DNA of 64,000 nt from Eledone cirrhosa (taxonomy: Eukaryota). A program made the translations under genes and the position numbers. How positions within the stretch are numbered: the first letter of the stretch is position 1; each line of letters opens with the position of its first letter. Below, piece by piece: positions 13,136-53,730 of the stretch. The stretch lies in assembly GCA_964016885.1 (NCBI GenBank), contig OZ024748.1, positions 43,214,001 through 43,278,000 on the forward strand. The letters are read 5' to 3'. A model generated the notes under the pieces. That model had not been told where the DNA came from. It was given only the letters and a program-made list of their open reading frames with translations, and did not search any database.

Positions 13136-13504
13136 GGGGTATTTACTTCTTTCTTTCTTTATTTATTTTATTCTAGCCTAACAATAGCCTGACACCTAGG
13201 TCGTAGAATTTAATTTACTTTACTTTTTTCTTTACACTTATTTGCTTTTCTTCACTCTCAGTATTTTTTCTTTCCTATTTCTACCCCCCATTGTTCTACC
13301 TACCGTTCCGACTTCCTCCCCCCCCCCCGTATCTTCTTTGACCTCATGCCCAGCTGTAGCTGGCACTACCAACGCTTGATTGGGTCTACTCCACCCCCTC
13401 CCCTCTTTCTCCTACTGGCAGGTTTAGCCACCATCTCCCCTACTAATTCGCAACCACAGAATTACTACTGATTTTTGACAATCACTTTGACCATATATGG
13501 AATT

Positions 13505-16937: not shown

Positions 16938-19265
16938 TTAAGTTATTTTATAGTGAGAGAATTTAGCTTTTAGTTTGTGGTTGCAGTATAATGATCGTTC
17001 AATTCTATCGTTAAGTAGTTTGTTTTTGGATTTTAGTATGTAAAATAGCTCAAGGTTACATAACCTGCAGTACTTCAAACCACTCCGATATGCATTTGCG
17101 CTGGAAAGTATATCCCATTTTAAGGTGAACTGTTGGTTATGTTCACGGAGTTGCCAGGTCTTGTTGGCGAGCGTAGTCACAAAACGGTGATTCTGATGTT
17201 TGATTGAGAATCGATGACGGTACCAGCGAGATTTAAACGATGTGGTGGTTGATCCGATATAATACCATTTCTGGTCGTCCGATTCAACCGTGCATTGGTA
17301 AACAATGTTGGACTTTAGGCATTCATTCTGCAATGGACATCTTTCAGGTAGATGGCAGTTACATGCTTTGTTGTGGGTAGCGGGTATACCATGGATAGGT
17401 TGTGATAGCGGTACAGGTGGGTTGTGCAATACCCGTCTCCCATTTAGTGGTTGGGAGGCAGATATTGCGTTCTGCCCACCTGTTACTAAAATGTTTTGTT
17501 TTGTAGAGTTGTTTAATTGCCTTAAGTTAAGTTTTTTTATGTATGCTTCAAGGTTTGGTGCCGTGGAGTATGATAGTCTAATAGTTTTGGAGTTCAGAAT
17601 TTTGCTGTACTTATGGGAACTAGGGAAGTGTTTATTGATTAATTTAAAGAATGAAAGAGATAGTTTTGTACTAATCGAGGCATTAAAAATAGGATTATAC
17701 CAGATATACTTTCTACAACGTGATTTATTTGGTGGTGAACTTCTATTATTAGTATGTCTGGTAGTATAGTGTGTGTGTGCTTGTGTTTTAGTCCCCCGGT
17801 TACGTATACCTTGATTACGTGTAGAGCTATGTGTGTTGTGGAAATTACTATCGATGTATTCTATTGTATCCCGGTGGTCAGCATTCCTTAATGCATTATT
17901 GTAGTATTCAGCATGTTCGCTAAAAATATCAGAGTTAGACGATAGGCGAGAGATTCTAAGAGAAATACTCCGGGGAACTGATTTGATCATGGAGAGTGGG
18001 TGGTTAGAGTTAAAGTCAATATACGTAAGGTTCTCATTTACCTTGTGGAAGGGTCGTATCTGTCCGGTATTTAAATTAAGAGTTACGTCCAGAAAGTTTA
18101 CTACCTTAAGATTGTATTCGTATGTTATTTTTAGGCCCAGTTCACTAAAAGATTTTCTAATATTTTTCCGTAGCCTTTCAAGATTTTGGTTATTCAAGTT
18201 ATTAACTAATAAGAGCCCGTCATCTCTATATATCCCCCCCTGTAGATTACTAAATCTACTATGTAATATGTGGGCTATGTAAATTCCCACGAGATCCGTG
18301 ACCTCCACCGAGTCGTTGGAACCCATGGTAATATCGAAATTTGTGGGTCTGTCCTTACGTTCCCAGTAGCAGTTATCGAACTTAATAATGGTTTTTCTAG
18401 CCTCGAGAATAATATTAATTTCTTCCTCCGTTAGGTCGGAATTGGCCTTAGCAAACGATAGGGCCTTACGTAAAGTGCTTGGTGAGATTGAAGAGTAGTA
18501 TTCGTCTATGTCAAATTGTATAAACTTAGATTTATTCTTATTCTTAACATTATTAAACCAGCGAATTGCTTCGCTAGTGTTGCCCCATAATTTAATTTCA
18601 ATTTTCTTTTTCACTTGAGTTATTACTCTGTCAAGTATATGTTTGCTAATTTTCCCTATGTCTGATTTAGAAGGGCATATAAGTCTAATCTTAGGGTTAG
18701 AGTCAAAATTTACCTTATGGTCCTTCAGGTTGAAGGTGGGGGTAGCGGGTATAATCGGCTCGGTTCTATCGTCTATCTTGAGATTCTTTACCACTTTGTA
18801 TGCCTCGTTGTTAATATTTGCTAGCGTAGTTTCATTTGTTTTTCTATATTTTTTGTGTAGTTCGTTGCGTATGAAGTTATTATACGTATCGATATCCATG
18901 GTATACACGTTAGAAGTCTTGTCAGCTTTCACAACAATTCCATTGGTATTTTGCAATCTTCGGAGTAGTGCTTTCATGTTGTTCTGCAGCTCATTATTTC
19001 TATGTCTGTTGAACTTAATGTTCATGGTAGTTTTCAATAAGTCCTGTTCGAAAGCTTCGAGGTGAGGGTTTGTAGGTGGGTTTTTACATGATTTAAAACC
19101 ATATGATTCAGACGAGTGATTGGCGCGTCCTTTATCGAAGTGGAAAGCTTTCCATCGTACACGCCGAATGAAGTCGTTACTGCGTTGAATCATACTGAGA
19201 ATATATTCCCTTTTGTTAGGTATAGGTATGTTTTTAAGTGACATACCTATATGATGCCTTTCCAT
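16938..19265 (-). CDS. Intact PLE polyprotein: RT + CxCx5Cx5C Zn motif + GIY-YIG endonuclease (775 aa)
   Basis: ATG to stop uninterrupted; SLKNIPIP, KADKT, FDIDEYY, MGSNDS, GGIYRDDG, FLDVTL, SNHP, CNCHLPERCPLQNEC, IVYQC..YYIGST, CRLC. Confidence 0.95.
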   Translation of the reverse strand: MERHHIGMSLKNIPIPNKREYILSMIQRSNDFIRRVRWKAFHFDKGRANHSSESYGFKSCKNPPTNPHLEAFEQDLLKTTMNIKFNRHRNNELQNNMKALLRRLQNTNGIVVKADKTSNVYTMDIDTYNNFIRNELHKKYRKTNETTLANINNEAYKVVKNLKIDDRTEPIIPATPTFNLKDHKVNFDSNPKIRLICPSKSDIGKISKHILDRVITQVKKKIEIKLWGNTSEAIRWFNNVKNKNKSKFIQFDIDEYYSSISPSTLRKALSFAKANSDLTEEEINIILEARKTIIKFDNCYWERKDRPTNFDITMGSNDSVEVTDLVGIYIAHILHSRFSNLQGGIYRDDGLLLVNNLNNQNLERLRKNIRKSFSELGLKITYEYNLKVVNFLDVTLNLNTGQIRPFHKVNENLTYIDFNSNHPLSMIKSVPRSISLRISRLSSNSDIFSEHAEYYNNALRNADHRDTIEYIDSNFHNTHSSTRNQGIRNRGTKTQAHTHYTTRHTNNRSSPPNKSRCRKYIWYNPIFNASISTKLSLSFFKLINKHFPSSHKYSKILNSKTIRLSYSTAPNLEAYIKKLNLRQLNNSTKQNILVTGGQNAISASQPLNGRRVLHNPPVPLSQPIHGIPATHNKACNCHLPERCPLQNECLKSNIVYQCTVESDDQKWYYIGSTTTSFKSRWYRHRFSIKHQNHRFVTTLANKTWQLREHNQQFTLKWDILSSANAYRSGLKYCRLCNLELFYILKSKNKLLNDRIERSLYCNHKLKAKFSHYKIT

Positions 19266-19502
19266 ATTAATGCCGTGTGTCGATGTGGTTGCTCAACTAT
19301 GTAGGAGACGATTATTAGGTATAGGATTATCCAAGATGCAGTGATGGTTAATTACTACACTGGATATGGTTGACGTACGGTAAGAGGTTACTCTACGAGT
19401 TATGGAAGAATTGTTCAAGAAACTTAGTTCCTGATCCTTCAGTATTCCGGAGTGTATATAAAGAATGAATAATAACAGGTAGACATCATAAAAAGGTAGT
19501 TT

Positions 19503-25116: not shown

Positions 25117-27078
25117 CATCATCATCATCGTTTAACGTCCATCTTCCACGCTAAGCATGGGTTTAGGCGAGAATTGTCCTACTTGAGGCAAGATTGGTTG
25201 TCTTGCTCGTATAGTACTGTCTTGCAGGTTTTCTACGGCTGGATGCCCTTCCTAACACCAACCACGTCTACAGTGTGGACTGGGAGGTTTTTACCGTGTT
25301 ACCTACACGGCCAAATTACAGCGTGTTTTTTTGTCGTGACTCCTACACGACCTCATTTATTTAGGACTGGATGTTGTGGTACCAACATAACTTTACATCG
25401 AAAGGGGTGGTGTAGATTGGGTGAGGTAGTGGGACGGGGTGTATTTTGGTAAGAGGTGCCTACTGACTGTAGGTTTCGCTTTGTACTTAGGCAAGGCGGG
25501 TCTTCTGTATTACTGCGTAGCGCCAAAGATCTCGGTCCAGTGACATTGTCTTGGAGAGGTGTAAGTGTGTAAGGTCGGAATTTATCAAGTCGTCCCAGGT
25601 TTTTCTGGGTCTGCCTGCCTACTCCGTACCTACCGTCTATTTTGATTGCCCTGCACTTTTTTATACAGCTGTCGTCTTTCATGCGCATCACGTGACCATA
25701 CCAACGTAGTCTTCTCTCGAGTAAACAGCATTTGAGACCTCTTATTCCTAATTTCTCACTTAGTTCATTTATGCTTTGCCGTTCACATATATTACTATTA
25801 CACATCCAACGGAGCATGCAAGCTTCGTTCCTCTCCAGTCTGCGTAGATCCTCTGCACAAAATGCCCATGTCTCACTGCCATGTAATATTGCTGTTCGTA
25901 TGCAGGCATCATACAGCCTGCCTTTCATTTTTAGAGAGAAACCTTTAGCGGCCAATAGTGGTATAAGCTCTCTGAACTTTTTCCATCCCATTCTGACTCT
26001 AGCTACTGTACTTTCAGAGCACCCTCCACCACTGCTGATTTTGTCACCCAGGTAACGGAAGGTGTCCACTATTTCTGGGCAATGGAATGAGCTAGTATTC
26101 TGTGGGCACTTGCTACTTATTGCACCTGAGCACCGGCCACATATAAAATCTATATTCTTAGTTAGCTTACCTGTGATCCCACTACATCTTTTATGCACCC
26201 ATACTTTGCATTTGGGACATAAAATGGAGTTTCTGCCTACTCCTTTCCTACACACTGTGCATGGCCATTTCCCAGAGGGGACTAGTGCCCTGTTTTCCTT
26301 CCTACATACTAGAACTTTAGTCTTAGACAAGTTAATTTTAAGGCCTTTTGATTCTAGGCCATGCTTCCATGTTTGGAATTTCTTCTCTAGTTCAGCCATT
26401 AATTCAGCTATGAGCGTTAAATCATCTGCGTATAGAAGTTCCCATGGGTAGCCGGTCTTGAACTCCTCTGTTATAGCCTGAAGGGCAATAATAAATAGTA
26501 GGGGGCTAAGGCGGAGCCCTGATGAACACCAACTTTTACGCTAAACTCTTCACTATATTCGTTGTTAATTCTAACCTTGCTGACTGTTTCTTTATACATG
26601 GCTTGTATAGCTCTCACAAGCCATTCATCAACACCTAGTTTTCTAAGGGCCATACCAGATAATCGAGCGGGGTACTCTGTCAAAGGCTTTCTCCAAGTCA
26701 ACAAAAGCTAAGTATAGGGGTTTACTTTTAGCTAGGTACTTCTCCTGTAGTTGTTGTACAATGAAAAGAGCGTCTGTTGTACTTTTACCTGATACAAACC
26801 CGAATTGCATTTCATCTAGATCAATTCGCTCTCTGATTAGTTGCGCTATAACTTTTTCTGTGACCTTCATGACCTGTTCAATTAATTTAATGCCTCTATA
26901 GTTTCCCCTATCTAGGGCATCGCCTTTACCCTTGTAGCAGTTAATGATGATGCTGCTACGCCAGTCATTTGGTATGACCCCATTCTGTATGACTTGGTTT
27001 ACTATCCGGGTGACCATAGTGTGTCCCACTGTTCCAGATGCTTTCAGTATTTCAGCAACTATTTCCGACGGCCCAGCC
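25117..27078 (-). mobile_element. 5'-truncated RTE-clade LINE (RT + PHD-like finger), frameshifted
   Basis: NYRGIKL, QFGF, FVDLEKAFD, GVHQGS, YADD; CTVC..CPKC..HKRC..CGRC; (TGA)n tail at 25117. Confidence 0.9.
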
Positions 27079-27109
27079 TTATAAATATATATTTATATTT
27101 ATATATATA

Positions 27110-29584
27110 CAGTGGGTCCTCGATATACGGTAGTTCTTTATCCGGTAAATTCACAGATACGGTTTTGGGTAATTACTACCATCAATTCTATTTCCGGTAA
27201 AAAAATTCACAAATACGGTTTTTCGTCGTGTTTTGTTTATATTGTACCGTAGCGCCACCTGTAATAAGCAATAAATTTTCCCTTGAAACTGGCTGCTATT
27301 CGAATTCTAGGAAAATTGTGTTACTACTGCTATTGTACTAACCGACCGTACCAAGAAACTGGCCAATCACGAGCGAGTTCAGATATCGGTCGATGACGTC
27401 ATAACTCTTAACCGATAGCTTCAGTTCGGCAAACTAGCGTGTCCTCTCAGTGAGAGAATTTTTGCCGAACTGAAGTCATCAGTTAAAAGTTATGACGTCA
27501 TTGAAAGTAAGAGAAAACCCAACGGCGTGTTTTTGGAGCATAATTATCACGGCATATCTTATAACCTCATATCTCATGGCCCCAAACGTCCTGCGAATAT
27601 TTCTGATGCAGATGGAAAGGCCAAACGCATGAGGAAGAGCCTGACTTTGGAGATAAAGCTGGACATTTTGAAAAGGAAGCAACAGGGGAAAAGTACGTCC
27701 GCCATAAGTCGTAACTTAGGCATAGCCCAGTCTACAGTCTGGACTGTTTTTAAAAATAGTGAGGCTGTCAAAAAGGCTGGGGAGAATGCTACGAGTCAAC
27801 AGAGTAAATTGTTGACCAAACATCGTGAGTCGATTATGGAAAGGTTGCTCAAAATTTGGATCGACGACCAAAATCGTCAAAATATGCCTCTGTCTTTAAA
27901 TGTAATCAGCGAGAAAGCATTGTCCATTATTGACAGGCTCAAGACTGAAATGGGGGTGGAGGACTTTGTATTCAAGACAAGCAAAGGCTGGTTTGATAAG
28001 TTCAAACGACGTTCCAGTCTTCACAACATAAAAGTTACAGGTGAGGCTGCCAATTCCGACAAAGAGAGTGCTGAAAAATTCAAGGCAGTGTTAGAGAAAT
28101 GCATTGCAGAGAAGGGCTACAGCAAAAAACAGGTTATTAATTATGATGAAACAGGACTCTATTGGGAAAAGATGACCAGTCATAATTATACTGACAAGGA
28201 GGAGAAAAGTGCGAAGGGGTTCAAAGCCTCAAAGGACCGCGTTATTCTGTTACTTGGAGGGATTGCAGAAGGAGATTTAAAGCTAAAGCCACGATTCTGA
28301 AACTCCCAGAGCACTCAAGGGGTTACTGAAGCAATATCTACCAGTGATATGGAAGTCTAATAAGAAGGCATGGCTGATCACTTCAATTCACCAGGATTTT
28401 TTCACCTCATATCTGTCACCAACCCTTAAGTAATATGCATAAGCTAACAACATTGCCAACCGTTTTCTGCTATTAGTGGACAACGCTCCCAGCCACCCAC
28501 GGGCAATGGAAGACTGGTCAGAAAATATTGAGGTTCTGTTTCTAACCCCCCCCCCCCCCCCCCAACACCACAGCTCTCATTCAGCCGATGGATCAAACAG
28601 TCATCAAAACATTTAAGGCATACTACCAGCGGAGAACCATGCAGTAGTTGATAAAGGGCACAGATGGGCCTGACAGGCCCACAATGAGGGAATGGTGGAA
28701 ATTGTACAACATCAAGCACGGCTTGGGAAGAGGCATCTTGGGAAGAAGTGAAGCAGTCTACCATGAACTTGGCCTGGAAGAAATTATGGCCAGCATGTGT
28801 GAATGACTTCCAATGCTTTGCTGAGGACATTGGTGCGATAAAAAAAGATATTGTAAATCTCTGCCATAGAGCTGGCTTCGATGGTGTTAATGATGATGAT
28901 GTGCAAGACCTTTTGAAAAGCCACGCTGAACCACTCTCCAGTGGTGAACTCATAGAACTAGACAAGGCGATACAGGAGACAGAAATAGAAGAAAAGGAGG
29001 AAGAAGAACCTGTGCGTGGCTTGGACATAAAAACTCTAAGAGAATGTCTCGGGAGTATCGAAACAATCTTAGAAACCCTGAAGGAGCGTGATCCCAACTC
29101 TGCTAGGAGCAGCAAAGTGACTCAAGATGTCGAGAAAAGCGTCAAGATTTACCAAGAAAAGTATGAAGCCAAAAGAAACACTGCCAAACAGTCCTCCATC
29201 TACTCTTTCTTCAAGCCAGTCACACCTGCCAACCGTGCTACAGCTGGCCCTTCAACATCCACTGCAGTCAACGAGTTGGTTGGTTTTGAGCCTCCCACAT
29301 CCTCCCCTGCCAACTCAGTCCAAGATGAGTAAGGGCTGAAACCCAAACTGTCCCTTAGCCTCGGGAGGGACAAATGAAGTAACACATTATCTGATGGACT
29401 AGGCGGCATGTGTAAGGTACAGTAAATAGAAAAAAACATTATTTCTTTTCTGTAGGGATGACTTTTTCGATGTGCTGGAACGCATCCCTATCTATTTCAT
29501 GTTATAATGAGTTCTTTATACAGTAATTCGATAAACGGTAAGGGTTTCAGGAACGCATATATACCGTATATCGAGGACTCACTG
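27110..29584 (+). mobile_element. Full-length Tigger/pogo-like (Tc1/mariner superfamily) DNA transposon
   Basis: 23-bp TIRs cagtgggtcctcgatatacggta / taccgtatatcgaggactcactg (1 mismatch), TA on both sides. Confidence 0.92.
27576..29332 (+). pseudogene. Disrupted Tigger/CENP-B-like transposase
   Basis: RKSLTLEIKLDI HTH, SKGWFDKFKRR, NYDETGLYW, LLVDNAPSH, QPMDQ; frameshifts and stops between ~28290 and 28750. Confidence 0.88.
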
Positions 29585-32710: not shown

Positions 32711-32734
32711 TATATATTTATATAGCATTCTTCA

Positions 32735-33799
32735 CCATATGAGATGTCATCTGGTGTACCACAGGGATCTGTTCTTGGTCCCCTTTTGATTGTTGCATAC
32801 ATTAATGACATAGATGCCAACTTACAGAATGCCACGGTACTGAAATATGCAGATGACATCAAGCTGTACCTTGAAATCAAAAGGATTGATCCTGAAATCT
32901 ACAACTCTTTCCTACAATCAGACCTGGACACAATCAGCAATGGATCACAGACTGGCAACTGAAGCTGGCTGTAGACAAGTGTACCACCATGCATTTTGGG
33001 AGGAAAAATCCAGCGTCCACATACTCCCTCCACAACACTGATATCAAGAAGTCCTCTTGTGAACATGACCTGGGCATTACGGTCAGCAGCGATTTGCGTT
33101 GGACAAAGCATGTCTCTAAGATTGTCAAGAAGGCCGAGGGTGTCTTGGCATCACTCAACAAGACCTTTGTTAGCCGCTCTCCAGCTATCTATTTAAAACT
33201 GTATACAGCTATGGTATGACCACACTTGGAATTCGCATCATCAGTCTGGAACCCCTATCTTGCTCAGAACATTGACCTCCTGGAAACTGTTCAGAGACGT
33301 GCAACCAAGCGCATACCCTCCATCAGACACCTACCATACTCTGAACGCCTTGCTTCCCTGGGCATGGATTCATTGAAGCTCCGACGTCTGGCAATGGGCT
33401 TGGTAAACACCCACAAAGTTATTAACCATCTCGCCAATAACAACCCTGAACACCTTTTTGATCTCCATGTGTCTAACACACGTGGACATGCCTACAAAAT
33501 CAGAAAACAGCACAGCTCCCATGACTTTCGTAAACATTTTTTCACGTTCAGAGTTGCTGAAGCATGGAACAAACTGCCTGCGTCAGTTGTTAGCTGCCGA
33601 GACACTGCATCCTTTAAAACCCTCATGCTTCCCGAAATACGCCCAAACTACACCTGATGTACCCCTTCCATACACATGCACACATGTGTGTATCATGACT
33701 CATGTACTGTTCATTTTCCTGACGTTTGTACATTACCCTATGTACTATACATACACTTTTTGATGAGTTGTTGTGCACCTGAGCTCTGTACACAATATT

Positions 33800-34030: not shown

Positions 34031-34204
34031 TATATATATTTACATTCATATATATATATAAATGTAAATATATATGTATATACATATATACTTAACAAAT
34101 TAAAGACCGTCACACATAGCTTGCGTTGTTTGATATCAAAAAGGCGTAAGAAAATATTTTAGTAAAAAGACGGAAATGTTGTGAAGAAGATATGTTTGAA
34201 TGTT

Positions 34205-37038
34205 TATATTACAGAACATGGTAACTAGGTGTATATATCTTTTAAAGAATGTTATATATATAATACAGAACATGGTAAATAGGTGTATATATCTTTCAAA
34301 GGTTGTTGTATATATATTACAGAACATGGTAACTAGGTGTATATATCTTTTAAAGAATGTTATATATATAATACAGAACATGGTAAATAGGTGTATATAT
34401 CTTTCAAAGGTTGTTGTATATATATTACAGAACATGGTAAGTAGGTGTATATATCTTTCAAAGAATGTTATATATATAATATAGAACATGGTAAATAGGT
34501 GTATATATCTTTCAAAGAATGTTATATATATAATACAGAACATGGTAAATAGGTGTATATATATTTCAAAGAATGTTATATATATAATACAGAACATGGT
34601 AAGTAGGTGTATATATCTTTCAAAGAATGTTATATATATAATACAGAACATGGTAAATAGGTGTATATATCTTTTAAAGAATGTTATATATATATTACAG
34701 AACATGGTAAGTAGGTGTATATATCTTTCAAAGAATGTTATATATATATTACAGAACATGGTAAATAGGTGTATATATCTTTCAAAGAATGTTATATATA
34801 TAATACAGAACATGGTAAGTAGGTGTATATATCTTTTAAAGAATGTTATATATATAATATAGAACATGGTAAATAGGTGTATATATCTTTCAAAGAATGT
34901 TATATATATAATACAGAACATGGTAAATAGGTGTATATATCTTTCAAAGAATGTTATATATATAATACAGAACATGGTAAGTAGGTGTATATATCTTTTA
35001 AAGAATGTTATATATATAATATAGAACATGGTAAATAGGTGTATATATCTTTCAAAGAATGTTATATATATAATACAGAACATGGTAAGTAGGTGTATAT
35101 ATCTTTTAAAGAATGTTATATATATAATATAGAACATGGTAAATAGGTGTATATATCTTTCAAAGAATGTTATATATATAATACAGAACATGGTAAATAG
35201 GTGTATATATCTTTCAAAGAATGTTATATATATAATACAGAACATGGTAAGTAGGTGTATATATCTTTCAAAGAATGTTATATATATAATATAGAACATG
35301 GTAAATAGGTGTATATATCTTTCAAAGAATGTTATATATATAATACAGAACATGGTAAGTAGGTGTATATATCTTTTAAAGAATGTTATATATATAATAT
35401 AGAACATGGTAAATAGGTGTATATATCTTTCAAAGAATGTTATATATATAATACAGAACATGGTAAATAGGTGTATATATCTTTCAAAGAATGTTATATA
35501 TATAATACAGAACATGGTAAGTAGGTGTATATATCTTTTAAAGAATGTTATATATATAATATAGAACATGGTAAATAGGTGTATATATCTTTCAAAGAAT
35601 GTTATATATATAATACAGAACATGGTAAGTAGGTGTATATATCTTTTAAAGAATGTTATATATATAATATAGAACATGGTAAATAGGTGTATATATCTTT
35701 CAAAGAATGTTATATATATAATACAGAACATGGTAAGGGGGTGTATATATATTTCAAAGAATGTTATATATATAATACAGAACATGGTAAGTAGGTGTAT
35801 ATATCTTTCAAAGAATGTTATATATATAATACAGAACATGGTAAATAGGTGTATATATATTTCAAAGAATGTTATATATATAATACAGAACATGGTAAAT
35901 AGGTGTATATATATTTCAAAGAATGTTATATATATAATACAGAACATGGTAAGTAGGTGTATATATATTTCAAAGAATGTTATATATATAATACAGAACA
36001 TGGTAAGTAGGTGTATATATCTTTCAAAGAATGTTATATATATAATATAGAACATGGTAAATAGGTGTATATATCTTTCAAAGAATGTTATATATATAAT
36101 ATAGAACATGGTAAATAGGTGTATATATCTTTCAAAGAATGTTATATATATAATATAGAACATGGTAAATAGGTGTATATATCTTTCAAAGGTTGTTATA
36201 TATATAATACAGAACATGGTAAGGAGGTGTATATATATTTCAAAGAATGTTATATATATAATACAGAACATGGTAAGTAGGTGTTTATATCTTTCAAAGA
36301 ATGTTATATATATAATACAGAACATGGTAAATAGGTGTATATATCTTTCAAAGAATGTTATATATATATTACAGAACATGGTAAGTAGGTGTATATATAT
36401 TTCAAAGAATGTTATATATATAATACAGAACATGGTAAGTAGGTGTTTATATCTTTCAAAGAATGTTATATATATAATACAGAACATGGTAAATAGGTGT
36501 ATATATCTTTCAAAGAATGTTATATATATATTACAGAACATGGTAAGTAGGTGTATATATCTTTCAAAGAATGTTATATATATAATACAGAACATGGTAA
36601 GTAGGTGTATATATCTTTCAAAGGTTGTTATATATATAATATAGAACATGGTAAATAGGTGTATATATCTTTCAAAGAATGTTATATATATAATACAGAA
36701 CATGGTAAGGAGGTGTATATATATTTCAAAGAATGTTATATATATAATACAGAACATGGTAAGTAGGTGTTTATATCTTTCAAAGAATGTTATATATATA
36801 ATACAGAACATGGTAAATAGGTGTATATATCTTTCAAAGAATGTTATATATATATTACAGAACATGGTAAGTAGGTGTATATATCTTTCAAAGAATGTTA
36901 TATATATAATACAGAACATGGTAAGTAGGTGTATATATCTTTCAAAGGTTGTTATATATATATTACAGAACATGGTAAGTAGGTGTATATATCTTTCAAA
37001 TGTTGTTATATATTATAGAATATGGTAAATAAGTGTAT
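34205..37038. repeat. 54-bp minisatellite (~52 copies) with a 540-bp higher-order duplication
   Basis: Unit agaacatggtaaataggtgtatatatctttcaaagaatgttatatatataatac; 34801-35160 recurs at 35341-35700. Confidence 0.95.
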
Positions 37039-37321: not shown

Positions 37322-39142
37322 TTACTTGAGTATTTCAATATTGATATCAGGAGCCATAGACAAATGTTTCGATTCACAAGATCGATAAAAACGTACATTT
37401 CTTGCGCGAAGAATCTTCCAGCTTGACAAAATATGTAATCCTTTATCTCCATCAATTTTGATATGATCTACATCAGAAAGACCGTCCCTGATCCACATGG
37501 AACGAAATCGAATAAATGGTAAAAATGTTGAAGTATTGACCATCGATATGTTGTAGTAGAGGATCTGGGTTTGTAAACGATTGCTGATAATTTCAATATT
37601 AGCCGATGAATTGTCATAATATTGTATGAATGCTATAAATGTTGGTTCAGTTTGGACAATTTTGATGATTCTAATGTCTGCAAATGGTCGAAAACTTGAC
37701 AAGTTAGTTGGTCCAAGAATTACGGATGAACCAAATGGAATCCAATCAACACCATGAACTAACGGTGGAAGTGTCCGGGCATTACCGTCTTGATAGAGAA
37801 CAAATATTTGTGACGTGTTACTTGATCCAAGAACACGTTTACTCAATCGAATGAAATCAATATTATCGAACTTATTACCTTCTAGAATGACACTCATAGT
37901 TCTAGGTCGTCGCCACCAGAAATCGATATTAACACCTTCTAATGCAGTATTGAGACTTCGATATAATGGTATCACTGTTTCTCCCCGTTCTGGTCGTCTA
38001 ATTAAACTAATCTCATCAATAATTACTAATTGATCTTCTTCAGAAACCAATATCAGGAATATAGCATTGATATTACTTTCTGACCATGTGAAGTCAGGTA
38101 TTGACCAAATTCCTGTTGGTGCCTGTGCAGAAAATGTCCTGTGTTGTAATTCAGAAAGCTTACTATTTCTACCATTATATGTCATATTTATAAAGAGAGG
38201 TCGAGTAATTTTCTTTAGTTTTACTGTAAAGTTCGATCCAATATCGGCATCGATCACTCCACTCATTTTACCTTTCAGCGGAAAAAATATAATAAATTTA
38301 TATAACCTTAATTTTGTTAATCTTATTGTGAACGAATTGATGTTCATGACTACATTATGTTCTGGGTCAATTGGTTTACCTTTTAACAACCAAAGCTGTG
38401 GTGATGAGAGGCTGAAACAATCCTGGAATATTGCATTGCGATTGTTAAGCAGACTTTTGTAACGTGGATATGAAGGTGTGATACGATATCTTTTTACCTG
38501 AGCATGAATAAAAGCTATGTCAATGTTGTCCTGCTCTGCACATTTAGTCGGGAAACTTCGCTGGATTAAAGTTACTAGATCAGATCTTCGAGTGTTGTCT
38601 TTCTTCGTTGGTTCTGGTTTGTCCAGTTCTGGGAAACAACTCAATCTACACGACATCAAATCTTCAGAAATATAAGGATTATCTGTCATTATAGTCAAAG
38701 AATCAATTTCGATTCCTTGTGTCTCATTTAAATTAATCTGAATATCCAAAAAATGAATACCTTCTGTTAAAAATAAAGGTTTCCTAGCTGGTCCCGAGTC
38801 ACGAAATTCATTCCATAGTTGGCCGCCTTTGGAACGGCCTGATATAGAGAATGACTGCAACAATTGGTTATTAATATTAACTAGAACAACAGTTGAGTTT
38901 CCATCAATAGAATATCGAAATCCCATCATACGAATGGAAGAATTACTAGCAATACACATGTCCAACCGAATGGTTTTCCCTGGTAATAAATAAACAGCTT
39001 TCTTATTCGAAGCATTTGATCGACTATGAACCTTTAAACCTCCAGGTTGTTCTTCAGCTTCAAAAACCAATTCCGAAGTTTCTGCTAATACATAGTTTAT
39101 GGTGATAAATAAAAAGAAAGTAGTTTGCCAACAAACGAACAT
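37322..39142 (-). CDS. Uncharacterised secreted protein, 606 aa, N-terminal CBM6/CBM35-like domain (paralogue A)
   Basis: Single 1.8-kb ORF in AT-rich DNA; hydrophobic signal peptide; FEAE..SNASNKKAV..RYS.DG..LW..G.H.L.I..GIEIDSL; colinear with 45046-46863. Confidence 0.85.
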   Translation of the reverse strand: MFVCWQTTFFLFITINYVLAETSELVFEAEEQPGGLKVHSRSNASNKKAVYLLPGKTIRLDMCIASNSSIRMMGFRYSIDGNSTVVLVNINNQLLQSFSISGRSKGGQLWNEFRDSGPARKPLFLTEGIHFLDIQINLNETQGIEIDSLTIMTDNPYISEDLMSCRLSCFPELDKPEPTKKDNTRRSDLVTLIQRSFPTKCAEQDNIDIAFIHAQVKRYRITPSYPRYKSLLNNRNAIFQDCFSLSSPQLWLLKGKPIDPEHNVVMNINSFTIRLTKLRLYKFIIFFPLKGKMSGVIDADIGSNFTVKLKKITRPLFINMTYNGRNSKLSELQHRTFSAQAPTGIWSIPDFTWSESNINAIFLILVSEEDQLVIIDEISLIRRPERGETVIPLYRSLNTALEGVNIDFWWRRPRTMSVILEGNKFDNIDFIRLSKRVLGSSNTSQIFVLYQDGNARTLPPLVHGVDWIPFGSSVILGPTNLSSFRPFADIRIIKIVQTEPTFIAFIQYYDNSSANIEIISNRLQTQILYYNISMVNTSTFLPFIRFRSMWIRDGLSDVDHIKIDGDKGLHILSSWKILRARNVRFYRSCESKHLSMAPDINIEILK

Positions 39143-39184
39143 TTTCGATAAGTTCTTGTTTTTTTAAAGAGGTTTTGTTGTTTT

Positions 39185-39220
<36 letters not shown>

Positions 39221-39790
39221 GGTGATAATATTCAGAGAGCAAACACGGCTGAATTCTTCTCTGGTATAATCCGTTTTAGAAATGCCTTGCCGCTACTTGC
39301 TATGTATTGTGTATAATAACTCACTTTATCATTTTTAACTCTTACAAATAACTGCACCCACTTCTTTTCTTATTATGCTGCTAATGTACATACACACAGA
39401 TACACACACAGTCACATATACACATATGCATTAACAAAGCAATATAAACAAGCACCGACTCGCACACACCCAGCCAGTGACATACACAAACATATACCCA
39501 CATACATACACAGTCACACATACACACACACACCGCCACACAGTGACTTTGTTCAGCTATTTTGGCAGCCAAGTTCCCTGTTATCTTACAGTTCCCATGC
39601 CTCCCTGGCGGCAGATGCTAAATAAAACTCCACTTAGTTTCTTTTTCAAGTCACCAACAATAGACTCTCACGTACAAAGACACACCCTCACGCATACATA
39701 CACATACACACACATATATATCTGTGTGTGTGTGTATGTGTGTATATATATAAATTGGCAGTAAAAGAAAGAGAAATGGGTGTGGATGTG

Positions 39791-39826
<36 letters not shown>

Positions 39827-40046
39827 CACGCGTATATGCACACCGACGCATATATGTGTGTGTGTGTGTCTATATTTATAGATAGAGAGAGAGAGATATA
39901 CACACACATATATTTCTAAGTCTACACACACACAGATACACACACATCTTTCTGGCTCTCTGTGCCATTAGGATCCAACAAAAAACTTACTCTGTGCCCT
40001 CTGACATTAGCAATGTCTATTATTTGTTGACTTAAGTGAAACTGAA

Positions 40047-40595
40047 AGAGAGAACTTCACAGAGAGAGAGAGAACTTCACAGAGAGAGAACTTCACAGAG
40101 AGAGAGAACTTCACAGAGAGAGAACTTCACAGAGAGAGAACTCCACAGAGAGAGAGAACTTCACAGAGAGAGAACTTCACAGAAAGAGAGAACTTCACAG
40201 AGAGAGAACTCCACAGAAAGAGAGAACTTCACAGAGAGAGAACTTCACAGAGAGAGAACTCCACAGAGAGAGAGAACTTCACAGAGAGAGAACTTCACAG
40301 AGAGAGAACTCCACAGAAAGAGAGAACTTCACAGAGAGAGAACTTCACAGAGAGAGAACTTCACAGAGAGAGAACTCCACAGAGAGAGAGAGAACTTCAC
40401 AGAGAGAGAGAACTTCACAGAGAGAGAACTTCACAGAGAGAGAACTTCACAGAGAGAGAACTCCACAGAGAGAGAGAACTTCACAGAGAGAGAACTTCAC
40501 AGAGAGAGAACTCCACAGAGAGAGAGAACTTCACAGAGAGAGAACTTCACAGAGAGAGAGAGAGAGAGAGAGAGAACTTCACAGAGAGAGAACTA
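40047..40595. repeat. Imperfect (gagaga)aacttcaca minisatellite merging into (GA)n
   Basis: Direct inspection. Confidence 0.9.
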
Positions 40596-40617
40596 GTTAG
40601 AGAGAGAGAGAACTAGT

Positions 40618-40657
<40 letters not shown>

Positions 40658-41588
40658 ATGTTAACAGTTGTTCTGAATAAAGATGTCATTGAAATGAAGA
40701 ACGGTAATGACATTTAAAGGACTTAAACAACAACAACAACAACAACAACAACTACTACTACTATAACAATAACTACAACAACTACAACGGTAATGACATT
40801 TAAAGAACTTAAATAACAACAACTATAGCAACAACAACTACAACAACAGCAACTACAACTACGACAACTATAGCCGAATCACGACAGCAGTACCTTGTGG
40901 TATTTATTTGGCTCATAATGTTCCCAGTTCAAAATCCCACCGTAGTCAATGTTTTGCCTTTCATCTTTCCAATAAAATAAAGTACCAGTGATGTATTGGG
41001 GTCGATTTAAATAAATGAATAAATAGGTTTATAAGAAAGATTGTGTGATGTGTGGTTTGGATTGTTTGAGGAAAGTCAATACAATGCAAGTTAGAAATTA
41101 AGGAGTGAAAAGGTAATTAAATTAAGACAAACAAAATGGTAGTTATAACATGATTTTCAAAAGTCTAGGGAGCTGGAGAAATGTGGGGCTATGCTGTGTT
41201 CTATCTCATCTAATTGATGTTGGGAATTTCTTTCAGTTTTATACAAAAAATGTGGTTCAGCTTGCAATATGTTTTGTGGGGCTGTCGAGCAGGTCCTGCC
41301 GGAAATTGAGGGACGTCTTACCAGAAGCAAAGGACGATTGACGTCACCTCAGGCTTCGGGGTCTATTGACTGCCTCTTTTTCCACAGACCATGGTCAAGT
41401 GTGGACGTGTTTTACGAACATGAGAGAGGTTGTCATCCTCAGTCAGATGTAAGTCAAATGGATGTCGGCACACTGCACAGCATTCGGACTACATCTACAT
41501 CTTTGAAGTACAATTTAATAGATACAAGACCAGCAATTTAGGAGAAGGGATAAGTACTTAACTTGGTACTTGTGTGTCTGTGATATAC

Positions 41589-41668
<80 letters not shown>

Positions 41669-43043
41669 CAGCTCTGAACACAAAAGAACCAAGCTCCCAC
41701 TGTCACTGCCTCCATCCCTCCCGCTTTCCCCACCTCTCATAATTATGAGCAAACGGGGGCTCACGCACCGACTGCCGTATGGCCCCGGTGGAAAGAACAG
41801 AGAAGGCACCCCCCTGGAGGACAGCAAGGGAGATGCGTTAGTAGAGACAGGTAACCTACTCAAACATTATAACGCTATAAAAAATGTTTATGTTAGGCAT
41901 TAAAGTTGCTTAGAGTTATCTCCCTTGCATGTCGTGACTATGATGTAAATGAATTAGTGTTGTGAGTGTATGTGTGTGTGAGTGTATGTGTGTGTGTGTG
42001 CATGCGTGTGTGTGAGTGTGTGTGTGTATGTGTAAGAGTGTGTATGTGTAGGAGTGTGTATGTGTATGTGTGAGTGTGTGTATGTGTGTCAGCATTATTA
42101 ACCCTTTCATCTGAAGATTACCACATAACATCTACCCTAATATGTTAATCCACCTCATGGTCTTGGCCGTCGACAACATGGAGAAGACATTGTCCAGGAG
42201 GACGGTGAAGGGGACACGCTGGTACAGCCACTATCCACAAGTTCTTAGTTTCAATATCGCAAGCCCTGCGATGTAGAGTGGCTGTTTCAGAGCATCTCTT
42301 CGCTGTCACCCGCGGCAATGCAGACCTTGTGATGCAATTTGATGATGAAACATGTGTTAGGAAAAAAACAAGCAAGGTGTTCTAACACACACACACATAT
42401 ATATCTTTAAAAATAGACAGTTGCTGTACCAGAGATTCAGGGGTGGTTTCGGGTGCATGGAAATAAAGGACTTAATGAAGATTTAATGACTTAATGAAGA
42501 TTTAAAGACCGTCAAAGTTTCCTTGGGATTTGAGTTGTCAAAAGAGAAATTGGTCGAAGAGTTAGCTTTGAAATCCTGCTTAGGAAAATGGCTTCTGAAT
42601 CTCATCAGATATTAATCCAAAATGTCATAGATGTATGACATTCAGGACAAAGAGTATTTAATTAATATACCAGTGTACATATATATATGTGTATATATAT
42701 ATACTTTATATATATAATATATATTAATATATATATAGACACACATATATATATATATGTGTATATATATATATATACACATACATGCACACACACACAT
42801 ATATATTTGGTATGTATGCACTGTTGCCCATACACAGGGATTCAAGATTAAACAATCTAATTACCATTTCCTGTGTACATGTGAGTCAAAAGTTAGTGGA
42901 CCTTCTCGGTATTTTGTCATACTTAATTCATTATGTATGTATATGTGTGTGTATGTATGTGTGTGTATATATATACCTAATGTGAACTTAATATAACTGT
43001 GTACAATTGCTGCCTGTGTTTTGTTCGTTCATTTTCAACTATA

Positions 43044-43122
<79 letters not shown>

Positions 43123-43318
43123 ACACACACATATATAGTATCTATGTATGTATATATGTAGGTATCTATATATATGCATATATATACATACATATAAATT
43201 ATATATTTGTGTGTATGTGTGTGCATGTGTGTATGTATATATATATGCATGTATATATATGCATATATATATATATATATATACATACATATATATATAG
43301 ATATCATATATACATATA

Positions 43319-43389
<71 letters not shown>

Positions 43390-43487
43390 AAGTATATGTG
43401 TATATTTATATTTATATATATGTGTATGTGTATATATATGCGTGTATGTGCATAGTGTGCATGTATATATATATGCATGTATATATA

Positions 43488-43525
<38 letters not shown>

Positions 43526-43537
43526 TATATAGATATC

Positions 43538-43610
<73 letters not shown>

Positions 43611-43701
43611 AACAAGTATATGTGTGTATATGTGTATATTTATATATATGTGTATGTGTATATATATGCGTGTATGTGCGTATATATATATATATACATA
43701 T

Positions 43702-43732
<31 letters not shown>

Positions 43733-44193
43733 TTTCCTAATACTTTCAAGACAAAAAGATGAATAAACAAATATGTGACAGGTGACAGATGACAAGAAAC
43801 AAAAGACTTAAAAACAAAAGAGAAATATCAACATTTGAAAAGTAATGTTAAATCTGCACAGATGCTAGATCATTGTCTCAAGAGGAAAAAATATCCCCAG
43901 CTTTAACATGGAATTAGATCATCGATGTCTCCCAACTTAACCAATAGTTTGCTGCTTGCTCGTTTAGAAAGAGCCTATCAAATTGTTCTACCTGACTGAA
44001 ACCAGAATACTTATCTGCCATGTAATCACCAATCTAGTGTTGTGTAGTGCTAAGAAATTGTTGGAATTACAAAAGTTTTCACATCCTACTATAGTTTTAC
44101 ATCTGTGTGTTTGTTCCCCGGTGAAAAGATCGACATTTCTAAGTAACAACACCAACAGCAATCCTGAATGTAAAAGGTATTTATATATATATG

Positions 44194-44252
<59 letters not shown>

Positions 44253-44426
44253 TTATATATATCTATATATATATATATATATTTATACATAAATATATAT
44301 ATATAAATATATATATATTTATGTATATATTTATATATATAAAAAAATATATATTTATAAATATAAATATATTTATATATAAAATTATGTATATATAAAT
44401 ATATATATATATAAATATATGTCAAT

Positions 44427-44541
44427 ATTTTATAAAACACTCTTTGTATTTTATCTGATGAAAGCGTACGAAAGTTTTTGGTACCCTTGAAATAGAATAG
44501 ATATGGTTTTATAAATATAGTTTCCATTTATATAATATCAT
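44427..44541 (+). mobile_element. Short PLE-derived repeat with decayed hammerhead (stem III deleted)
   Basis: ttttat-CTGATGA-aagcgtacgaaagtttttggtaccctt-GAAA-tagaat; family of 53903-54113. Confidence 0.65.
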
Positions 44542-44898
44542 TGTATATATATATATACATATGTTTATATATATAAATATATATATATTTATATATATAT
44601 ATATATATATAAATATATATATATATATTTATATATAAATATATATATATGTTTATATATATAAATATAAATATATTCATTAGTTAAGCAAAACAAGACC
44701 ACAAATTTCACAAGGAAGACATTATTTAAAGATTGTTAACATATTTGTAGTTTAATGTAAGGAATGTAAAGAATAATAATAATAATACTAATAAATATAA
44801 ATATATATATATTTATATATATAAATATATATATATATATACATTTATATAATATATTTTATAATATATATATATATACATTTATATAATATATTTTA

Positions 44899-44929
<31 letters not shown>

Positions 44930-45045
44930 AATACATTTTTTTTTCTTTTTGTGATAATTGTTTACCTTGGCTTTACCGATTCCTCTCCTTTTTTCCTTCC
45001 TTCTTTTTTCTCTGTCTGTCTTTTCTTTCTTTCTTCTTCCATAGA

Positions 45046-46863
45046 ATGATCTGGAAAATGGTCGTACGGTTGATACTGCTGACTCTTCTATCTTGTATAT
45101 TAACTATGGCACTACAAGTGATACCAGTGACTGTGTCGAAATGGGTCCACAGTCACAGGATGATGGATCGAGATGGAGCAAATGAGAAGAAAACTGTTCA
45201 TTTATACGAAGGTGAGTCACTGAAGCTATCAATTTGTGTGAGACAAACAGCTATTTATTCAATAGCCAGCATTCGTTATTCCAACGATGGCTTATCTGAT
45301 AGCATTATAGTATATTTGGATGGTAAACCTATTGGAAATTTTACTTCAAAGACAAACTCAAAATATGGTGCATTGTGGAATGATTTTGACACCTCGGGAA
45401 GAATTGCTAAACCCACCATTCTTGAAATCGGTACATATTACCTGGAATTATTTGTAAGCAGTTCAGATAAGTATGGCATTGAAATTGATTCGGTGAACAT
45501 TGAGACAAATGATGCTACTGTAGGAGAATCTATTCTGATGTGTTACTTACAATGTCAAGAAAACTTCAATTACACCAGAGAGCAGATACAATGTTCTTCT
45601 TCAGCTAAAATGGAATTAATTCAAAGAAGTTTTCGAACTTTGTGTGCTGAGCAAGACAACATTGATATCGCACTTTTCCACAGAATTGTTTCCAAGTATC
45701 GAATTGTTGCTTCTTATCCAAAATATAACACTTCACTGAATCTAAAACATGCAGAGTTTAAAAACTGTGAAAACTTAAGCCCTTCTTTGCTGTGGAGATT
45801 ACCAGGAAAACAAAATACGGATTCTTCATTTCAATCATCTCTGAAGTCATATATATTTAAAGTAAAGAAAAATATTCCTTTTGTCTTTGAAATAAAATTT
45901 CATTTAAAGGGAAAAGATGAGGGTTTGATTGATTCAGATGTCGGATCAGTTCTGGAGATGAATTTTACAAATGTTGAAGGAAATTTCTCTGTTGGTTGTT
46001 CCTATACTATAAGAGCTGAACTATTTTCTCCAAGCATCAGCTATTTGATAACACTAAATCACTGGAACCAGACATGGACAGTACCAGATTATACGTGGTC
46101 AGAATACCAGTGCAATAGCATCAAATGTAATATCTTAAGCACTTCCAACCAAATAATTAACATCAGACACATCCAACTTTCAAGAAGAAAGGAACGTGGA
46201 GAGACTCAAAATTACATCTATAAAGACGAGGACATTATCATAAAAGGAGTAAATGTAGATTTTTGGTGGCGCCGACCAAAGACAACCCTTGTCACCTACA
46301 ACAATTCATATTTCCCTAATGTTGATTTTATTGTCGTCTACAAACGTATACCAAATACGTTTAATTTCAACCAAATCTTCGTCCTTTATCAAGATGGTAA
46401 CTCACGTACTCTACCACTCCCTCCAGAAGGAATTGATTGGATACCATTCGGATCATCAGTTATCATTGGACAAAGTAATTTAAGCGCTTTCCGCCCAGTC
46501 TCAGAAATTACAAGAATCAAAATTCTGGACGTTTCCAAAGAGAAAGTTTCATTGAGATTGTATTACTACGACGGTGGAGCAGCTATCGTTGATATATCAA
46601 GTAACGAAAGTGAAACGGAAGTGTCTGTCATACCTCTTATATACAAACAACCTCTGTCAATATCTCCATTTGCACGGTTTCGTTCCATGTGGATAATTGA
46701 TGGACAATGTGACGTTGATCATCTACAGACCGACAACAACCAACCTCGGGGTATCATGGATGGTTGGACGACAATGAAAGGATGTCAAGTGAATTTCTTT
46801 CGGATGTGTCAGTCTTCTCACTTAACACTCAGTCCAGATATCATGATGGAAATACTTCCATGA
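45046..46863 (+). CDS. Uncharacterised secreted protein, 605 aa (paralogue B)
   Basis: Single ORF, signal peptide; shares CAEQDNIDIA, PD.TWSE, DFWWRRP, QIFVLYQDGN.RTLP, DWIPFGSSVI, RFRSMWI.DG..DVDH with paralogue A; polypyrimidine tract + AG just before the ATG. Confidence 0.87.
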   Translation: MIWKMVVRLILLTLLSCILTMALQVIPVTVSKWVHSHRMMDRDGANEKKTVHLYEGESLKLSICVRQTAIYSIASIRYSNDGLSDSIIVYLDGKPIGNFTSKTNSKYGALWNDFDTSGRIAKPTILEIGTYYLELFVSSSDKYGIEIDSVNIETNDATVGESILMCYLQCQENFNYTREQIQCSSSAKMELIQRSFRTLCAEQDNIDIALFHRIVSKYRIVASYPKYNTSLNLKHAEFKNCENLSPSLLWRLPGKQNTDSSFQSSLKSYIFKVKKNIPFVFEIKFHLKGKDEGLIDSDVGSVLEMNFTNVEGNFSVGCSYTIRAELFSPSISYLITLNHWNQTWTVPDYTWSEYQCNSIKCNILSTSNQIINIRHIQLSRRKERGETQNYIYKDEDIIIKGVNVDFWWRRPKTTLVTYNNSYFPNVDFIVVYKRIPNTFNFNQIFVLYQDGNSRTLPLPPEGIDWIPFGSSVIIGQSNLSAFRPVSEITRIKILDVSKEKVSLRLYYYDGGAAIVDISSNESETEVSVIPLIYKQPLSISPFARFRSMWIIDGQCDVDHLQTDNNQPRGIMDGWTTMKGCQVNFFRMCQSSHLTLSPDIMMEILP

Positions 46864-51901: not shown

Positions 51902-53343
51902 ATCATCATCATCATCATCATCAACGTTTAACGTCCGTGTTCCACGCTTGCATGGGTTTGGACGGGGGTAGTCCCACTTGAGGCAAGAGTGATTGTCTTG
52001 CTCGCATAGGACTGTCTGGCAGGTTTTCTACAGTTGGATGCCCTTCCTAACACCAACCACATTTACAGTGTGGGTCTGGGAGGTTTTTACCGTGTTGCCT
52101 ACACGGCCACATTACAGCGTGGACTGTGTGTTTTTTTGTCGTGACACCTACACGATCTCATTTGTTTCGGCCCGGATGGCGCGGCACCAACATAACTTTA
52201 CGTAGGACGGGGTGGTGTGGATGGGGTGGGGGTGGTGGTGGTGGGACGGGGTGTATTTTGTTAGAGATGCCTACTGGCAAGGCGGGTCTTCTCTGTTACT
52301 GAGTACCGCCAAAGGTCTCGGTCCAGTGACATTGTCTTGGAGAGGTGTAAGTGTGTGAGGTCGGAGTTTATCAGCTCGTCCCAGGTTTTTCTAGGTCTGC
52401 CTATTCCGTGGCTACCGTCTATCTTTATTGCCCTGCACTTTGTTATACAGCTATCGACTTTCATGCGCATCACGTGTCCATACCAACGTAGCCTTCTCTC
52501 GAGTAAACAACATCTGATCCCTCTTATCTCTAATTTTTTCCTTAGTTCGTTTATGCTTTGCCGTTCACGTATATTACTGTTACACATCCAGCGGAGCATG
52601 CAAGCTTCGTTCCTCTCTAGTCTGCGTATATCCTCTGCACACAATGCCCAGGTCTCACTGCCATGCAACATTGCTGTTCGTATGCAGGCATCGTACAACC
52701 TGCCTTTCATTTTTAGGGAGAACCCTTTAGCAGCTAATAGTGGTATAAGCTCTCTGAACTTTTTCCAACCAGTTCTGACTCTAGCTACAGTACTTTCAGA
52801 GCACCCTCCCCCACTGCTGATTTTATCGCCCAGGTAACGGAAGCTGTCCACTATTTCTATAGAACCCTCTGCGCAATTGAAAGAGCTAGTATTGTGTGGG
52901 CACTTGCTGCTACTTATTGCACCAGAACACCGGCCACATGTAAAATCTATGTTCTTAGTTAGCTTACCTGTGATCCCACTACATCTTTTATGCACCCATA
53001 CTTTGCATTTAGGACACAAAATGGAGTTTCTACCTACGCCTTTCCTACACACCGAGCACGACCATTTCCCAGAAGGGACCGCCGCCTTGTTTTCTTTCCT
53101 ACAAACTAGAACTTTGGTCTTAGCCAGGTTAATTTTAAGTCCTTTTGACTCTAGGCCGTGCTTCCATGTTTGGAATTTCTTCTCTAGCTCGGCCATTGAT
53201 TCCGCTATGAGTGTCAGGTCGTCTGCGTATAGGAGTTCCCATGGGCAGCCTGTCTTGAACTCCTCTGTTATAGCCTGAAGGGCAATAATAAATAGTAGGG
53301 GGCTGAGAACAGAGCCCTGATGGACGCCAACTTTTACGCTAAA
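51901..53343 (-). mobile_element. 5'-truncated RTE LINE (same family as 25117), with 5' junction region duplicated at ~53455-53825
   Basis: ORF 52261-53196 with PHD-like finger and RT C-terminal region; (cat)n tail. Confidence 0.9.
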
Positions 53344-53364
53344 CGGACGCCAACTTTTACGCTA

Positions 53365-53408
<44 letters not shown>

Positions 53409-53730
53409 TTGCATATATATATATATATATATATATAATATCATTTAACATAAATTTTTCTTTCCTACAAACTAGAACTTTGGTCTTAGCCAGGTTAATT
53501 TTAAGTCCTTTTGACTCTAGGCCGTGCTTCCATGTTTGGAATTTCTTCTCTAGCTCGGCCATTGATTCCGCTATGAGTGTCAGGTCGTCTGCGTATAGGA
53601 GTTCCCATGGGCAGCCTGTCTTGAACTCCTCTGTTATAGCCTGAAGGGCAATACTAAATAGTAGGGGGCTGAGAACAGAGCCCTGATGGACGCCAACTTT
53701 TACGCTAAACGGACGCCAACTTTTACGCTA

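Follow-up and report, generated by a model that had tools for sequence, protein, structure and literature searches.

β-1,2-Glucans are bacterial symbiosis and virulence factors according to PMC10514313 and PMC11842490. The same papers state that hydrolysis by glycoside hydrolase (GH) family GH186 (MdoG, PF04349; Escherichia coli OpgD and OpgG, Xanthomonas OpgD) requires a C-terminal Ig domain and Loop A (PMC10514313) and that the SGL-clan families GH144 and GH162 have no sequence relation to GH186 (PMC11842490). GH162 is given as the known eukaryotic β-1,2-glucanase family in PMC12102758. Here, we describe a divergent gene pair, paralogues A and B, from a 64,000-nt stretch of the Eledone cirrhosa genome (GCA_964016885.1, contig OZ024748.1, forward strand, 43,214,001 to 43,278,000; the window). 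Both genes encode predicted secreted proteins in which a core domain, probably a circularly permuted relative of GH186 (OpgG/OpgD), is combined with two carbohydrate-binding module (CBM)-like modules. A literature search that took in few subscription journals returned no animal enzyme for β-1,2-glucans, no mollusc β-1,2-glucanase, and no description of this core family or of a permuted OpgG. The boldest reading, which we hold at slightly under even confidence, is that a glycoside hydrolase family arose by circular permutation of the GH186 catalytic domain, serves bacterial β-1,2-glucan pathways, and passed once to early animals, where molluscs and octocorals would secrete it as a β-1,2-glucanase to disarm or digest periplasmic and cyclic glucans of bacteria.

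The first-pass annotation had described two head-to-head open reading frames (ORFs) with signal peptides, an N-terminal CBM6/CBM35-like β-sandwich, and six invariant motif blocks. The ORFs lie as described (Table 1), all six blocks occur in both A and B, signal peptides are predicted (by hydropathy for A), and the N-terminal module is a jelly roll in the structure model of B (pLDDT, 92.3). The two proteins are 38% identical. Their coding sequences are uninterrupted, as had been claimed, but the gene for B probably has a 5′ intron, since a polypyrimidine tract and an AG precede its ATG; this tract is likely the splice acceptor. Three B orthologues are annotated from a Met near residue 40 and hence lack the signal peptide, which would fit an overlooked upstream exon. 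A genome-wide search with the last 225 residues of B returned A and B as the only copies, on a contig of 60.6 Mb.

At least 80 related proteins were found by sequence search, among them proteins of Octopus vulgaris, O. sinensis, Argonauta, a chiton, bivalves, and gastropods; an O. vulgaris protein has 75% identity to B. Orthologues of A occur in O. sinensis, Argonauta, and one Sepia-containing cluster. One cluster of relatives includes the octocoral Paramuricea clavata and another includes Sepia; the named animal relatives among the matches listed were molluscs and this one octocoral only. Argonauta and one further assembly have one A and one B protein apiece, which suggests that the pair is conserved beyond Eledone. 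Five weak matches of the first search had the core domain alone in common with the octopus proteins. A search seeded with one of them gave 197 proteins, and all named ones among the 120 listed were bacterial; a core profile search of genomes gave 97 matches, from which 79 loci in many phyla were kept. The earlier suspicion that a bacterial hypothetical family stood behind the C-terminal motifs was thus borne out. The core family has 811 representatives at 50% identity; some proteins consist of the core only (~270 to 320 aa), and others join it to diverse modules. No family was assigned to the core by sequence searches of Pfam, NCBIfam, and PDB, the ESM Atlas provided only leads below 0.9 (CBM-like for the whole protein and nothing usable for the core), and a genome-contig scan with a single octopus protein as the query found no match.

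Structural comparison recovered the N-terminal β-supersandwich fold of GH186 in the modelled core, with a Z gap of 14 to 15 versus 6.8, which supports the earlier guess of an unclassified carbohydrate-active enzyme. When the complete 605-aa model was searched with Foldseek, CBM folds prevailed among the matches, and OpgG was absent from them. The structural alignments end at OpgG residue 341, E. coli OpgD (EcOpgD) residue 368, and XccOpgD residue 359, each time 20 residues before the acid. The first ~65 core residues, unaligned to GH186, hold three strands and a T-x5-D-N-I loop with the spacing of OpgG T355-D361-N-I. When the acid-loop block was slid over the OpgG catalytic domain, the predicted register ranked 2 of 357, and the top offset was two residues off in the same loop; the end block ranked 1 of 363. 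With registers set by eye, the block around B D556 ranked 16 of 363 on OpgG and 5 of 357 on an intermediate Verrucomicrobiota family. Inserts of three kinds (CBM-like, repeat, and propeller-like) are located at this one site, the predicted permutation junction. The earlier domain layout stands in outline and is refined: a second CBM-like insert interrupts the catalytic domain, whose order is likely circularly permuted.

Ten residues (equivalents of B E202, D204, N205, D450, R454, R483, R546, D556, R586, and H592) are 97 to 100% conserved in 256 to 307 nonredundant family rows and 94 to 100% conserved in ~187 animal-type rows, near-duplicates included; A and B keep all ten. The candidate general acid (putative EcOpgD D388 equivalent) is an invariant D in a matching loop, situated at the N-terminus rather than at the OpgD position, and the candidate general base (putative EcOpgD D300 equivalent), D556, lies at the expected strand. 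By covariation, the D204 loop is adjacent to the regions of H592 and M548 (B numbering), and, in bacterial numbering, the D18 loop is near H275/N276, M232, and D238. We infer that D204 would be the general acid and D556 the general base of an anomer-inverting enzyme, in which the invariant R546 may take the place of OpgD R359.

Several results weigh against the kinship with GH186 and the proposed catalytic pair. In hhalign comparisons of the core with GH186, the probability was below 2% in natural or permuted order, reversed and rotated order gave no signal either, and identity to GH186 is 8 to 12%. The block registers were chosen by eye, three of nine blocks were poor on OpgG (ranks 45, 85, and 150 of ~360), and on the intermediate family the end block did not hold (rank 295 of 357). 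The proposed equivalence of D204/D556 was drawn from sequence registers. Ser or Ala replaces OpgD R359 before the conserved Pro, the exact position of OpgD E385 is not kept, and the C-terminal Ig-like domain with Loop A is absent, A and B stopping 8 residues past the conserved Pro. Lacking both R359 and the Loop A-bearing Ig domain, the family is outside GH186 by definition, though it likely functions in a GH186-like way. PF04349 did not match A, B, or 18 aligned family members. Compared to GH186, our family is also modular with CBMs, is found in animals, and likely has a permuted order in which the acid loop is N-terminal.

The intermediate family has six Verrucomicrobiota members (L107 to L113) whose GH186-like domain is in normal order (hhalign, 96.5% to OpgG; PF04349, E 2e-7). 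These proteins of 1500 to 1850 aa, in 6 of 401 genomes (L107:8498-13810, G002:C64; L109 to L113), carry the highly divergent domain among CBMs. The unpermuted domain has a PxVLxxxGxGxxR strand pair and a D-N-I-N-I acid loop in common with our family, and a CBM-like module similar to ours sits before it in L107; however, its order is OpgG-like, and its link to our family is just E 0.03 to 0.06.

The Pfam score for CBM35/CBM6 was 13.7 bits (cutoff, 28.9). The octopus modules differ from CBM35/CBM6 modules (3wnk, 3zm8, and 5fui) in scoring under the Pfam cutoffs, and the E-A-E motif is lost in B while retained in A. PF14683 was detected in homologues at the CBM-like insert, which is missing from most bacterial family members. 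Cry-toxin rows in the fold lists raised a toxin reading, which was rejected because these matches reflect the jelly roll alone.

Gene context makes it probable that the bacterial family acts on β-1,2-glucan, the evidence being its linkage to opgH, opgG, and GH144. Of the 79 loci, 16 show such linkage: in 9, the core gene immediately follows a co-oriented opgH (MdoH identity confirmed for four of these); in 3, opgG is close by, one of them having opgH too; and in 4, all planctomycete, there is a distant OpgH-like family 2 glycosyltransferase (GT2). Among 201 genomes of one order, all 23 carriers of the core gene have opgH, and the core gene is absent from all 89 opgH-negative genomes (Fisher p 5e-7, for genomes that are not independent); the core gene lies 0.77 to 0.93 kb downstream of opgH in 12 of the 23. 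GH144-like genes adjoin the core gene in L015, L031, and L148, and the endo-β-1,2-glucanase 5gzh was matched by the neighbors in L148 (E 1.5e-42) and L015 (E 1.2e-21). L148, which also has GH1 and LacI neighbors, belongs to the insert-bearing clade nearest the animals. GH144 and GH162 would share with our family the proposed substrate.

Other features of the bacterial data weigh against the favored explanation. The counts come from related genomes, most of them incomplete; the tree puts the proteobacterial clade with opgH linkage at the greatest distance from animals; and a CBM32 plus (α/α)6 protein is a commoner neighbor of insert-bearing bacteria than a GH144-like one. Replacement of opgG by the core gene, a further candidate explanation, failed. 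opgG was present in 0 of 10 opgH-core genomes of an early sample, and in a 61-genome control it occurred in 15 of 16 opgH-positive genomes, the lone exception carrying the core gene; across the 201 genomes, however, 21 of 23 carriers also have opgG (p 0.52), and only 2 of 16 opgH-positive, opgG-negative genomes carry the core gene. Neither opgG nor the core family is present in 14 of 112 opgH-positive genomes, and other opgH partners or opgH-only pathways are therefore common. Caulobacter has opgH alone, as stated in PMC11389396.

A recurrent arrangement, present in L121, L060, L063, and 11 further genomes, is a short opgH of a second type separated by ~0.8 kb from the core gene. The ORF in this gap in L121 and L063 is methyltransferase-like and presumably of the FkbM type. 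Several core loci adjoin a cluster of RibD-like, dehydrogenase, PTPS-like, glycosyltransferase, and methyltransferase genes (labels by eye). A divergent OpgH-like GT2 stands beside the core gene in L015, L031, L034, and L040; three of the four also have a gene resembling HlyD (by eye), and two have a GH144-like one. These planctomycete loci are possible unusual β-1,2-glucan synthesis and export loci. The CBM32 plus (α/α)6 protein recurs in L148 (12402-15542), L144, L152, L079, L080, and L081; it has weak GDE_C and GH15-like matches, and its catalytic part has no PDB match.

Because it is broad in bacteria and has operon links, the family is likely of bacterial origin. In a tree of core columns without the insert (rows P0015, L032, L069, P0050, P0053, and P0347 left out), 32 animal rows form one clade (97/91), comprising molluscs (96/87) and an octocoral-containing group (98/98). 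This clade is joined (97/91) by 13 bacterial rows that have the CBM insert and by a protist-like row on a long branch, P0082, whose position within the group has no firm branch. The root was imposed on the proteobacterial clade, which counts against the result; animal monophyly and nesting within bacteria were also recovered in a quick 96-row tree. The animal copies are thus monophyletic, nested in bacteria, and, in Eledone, on a genuine animal chromosome. We infer that bacteria with the CBM insert, a group that includes Verrucomicrobiota, passed the gene once and long ago to early animals and that it then descended vertically within molluscs; since an octocoral is in the same clade, the transfer would predate the molluscs. 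The distribution would fit either a single transfer with many losses or several transfers. The A and B lineages both include non-octopod cephalopod rows, one tied to Sepia, so their duplication appears to predate the octopod/cuttlefish split. Ancient transfer followed by duplication, as first conjectured, agrees with the tree. From the stalk-and-anchor tails of some of its proteins, we guess that part of the octocoral-containing group is from sponges. P0082 is a membrane-anchored, eukaryote-looking protein with the same core and insert on a long branch outside the animal clade; it may mark a second transfer. A freshwater mussel expansion (P0367 to P0397) comprises 7 Sinanodonta woodiana proteins (locus tags within ACJMK2_034789-034798) and 3 in Potamilus.

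In the mechanism that we propose, the two CBM-like modules would anchor secreted A and B to glycan or mucus, and β-1,2-glucan would be cleaved with inversion, D204 acting as general acid and D556 as general base. The targets would be periplasmic or cyclic β-1,2-glucans of bacteria encountered on mucosal or digestive surfaces. We give even weight to A and B being such hydrolases or remodelers of β-1,2-glucan on the body or gut surface; the least certain step is that bacterial β-1,2-glucans are still a substrate of the octopus proteins. If true, this would add a new carbohydrate-active enzyme family whose catalytic pair can be tested, a circular permutation of GH186 that arose in nature, a so far unrecognised opgH partner in many bacteria, and a candidate way for molluscs and corals to handle Gram-negative microbes. 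Minimal bacterial members of 270 aa would be convenient for assay.

The GH186-like fold and catalytic pair could instead have been kept while the animal substrate changed to algal or dietary β-1,3/1,6-glucans or to own glycans. A residence of hundreds of millions of years within animals, expansions in some lineages (8 Sinanodonta proteins among the matches listed), CBM structural matches covering several ligands, and the mixed glycan neighbors of the insert-bearing bacterial clade argue for such a change; we nevertheless regard it as unlikely, as the residues conserved in opgH-linked bacteria are near-invariant in animals and a GH144-like gene adjoins a member of the clade nearest to them. Rather improbable is a transglycosylase that cyclises or branches β-1,2-glucan, the octopus copies modifying rather than destroying it: we know of no β-1,2-glucan synthase in animals, and multi-CBM extracellular architectures beside GH144, GH1, and LacI genes suit degradation. 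Bacterial members do sit behind a glucan synthase, the Loop A motif, which fixes the nucleophilic water, is absent, and many GH186 members are anomer-inverting cyclases according to PMC11228985 and bioRxiv 10.1101/2025.04.21.649730. A noncatalytic three-module lectin or pattern-recognition protein binding bacterial glucan uncut would account for the two CBM-like modules and the loss of R359, and EcOpgG itself is barely active according to PMC10514313; the near-invariance, from bacteria to animals, of both predicted catalytic Asp residues and the Glu/Arg/His cluster, together with the covariation around the D18 loop, makes it improbable. A shared β-supersandwich in an unrelated enzyme, such as a mutarotase or lyase, would explain the lack of a significant profile match and a weak match to polysaccharide lyase family PL35 over the H-N-T motif (E 0.32), but is very improbable given the Z gap and the independent linkage to opgH, opgG, and GH144.

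Table 1. Features of the A/B gene pair in window coordinates
Feature	Position	Strand	Remarks
Paralogue A, coding sequence	37322..39142	-	606 aa: predicted signal peptide, CBM35/6-like module, GH186-like core with CBM-like insert
A, predicted signal peptide	39083..39142	-	~residues 1-20; hydropathy
A, CBM35/CBM6-like module	38675..39073	-	~residues 24-156; aligned to B
A D205, predicted general acid (EcOpgD D388 equivalent)	38528..38530	-	sequence register
A D557, predicted general base (EcOpgD D300 equivalent)	37472..37474	-	family alignment
Spacer between divergent start codons	39143..45045	.	5903 bp, rich in microsatellites
Polypyrimidine tract, AG end one base 5′ of B's ATG	44975..45044	+	sequence
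Paralogue B, coding sequence	45046..46863	+	605 aa; architecture as in A
B, CBM35/CBM6-fold module	45115..45516	+	residues 24-157
B, loop T198-x5-D204-N205-I206, predicted permuted acid loop	45637..45663	+	D204 = 45655-45657
B, CBM-like insert at predicted permutation junction	45778..46200	+	~residues 245-385
B, main part, GH186-like β-supersandwich	46201..46860	+	residues 386-605; D556 (46711-46713), R546, R586, H592

The remaining long ORFs of the window and its flanks are transposon-like or repeats. A long minisatellite lies directly downstream of A (34136-37028), and its 945 open codons on the minus strand are a repeat artefact. Transposon remnants occur at 11198-13162, 16938-19292, 25353-27092, 27419-29332, 32726-33654, and 52261-53727; they comprise Penelope-like ORFs and CR1-like fragments (by eye) as well as long interspersed nuclear element fragments with reverse transcriptase plus PHD and a Tc5/CENP-B transposase (Pfam).

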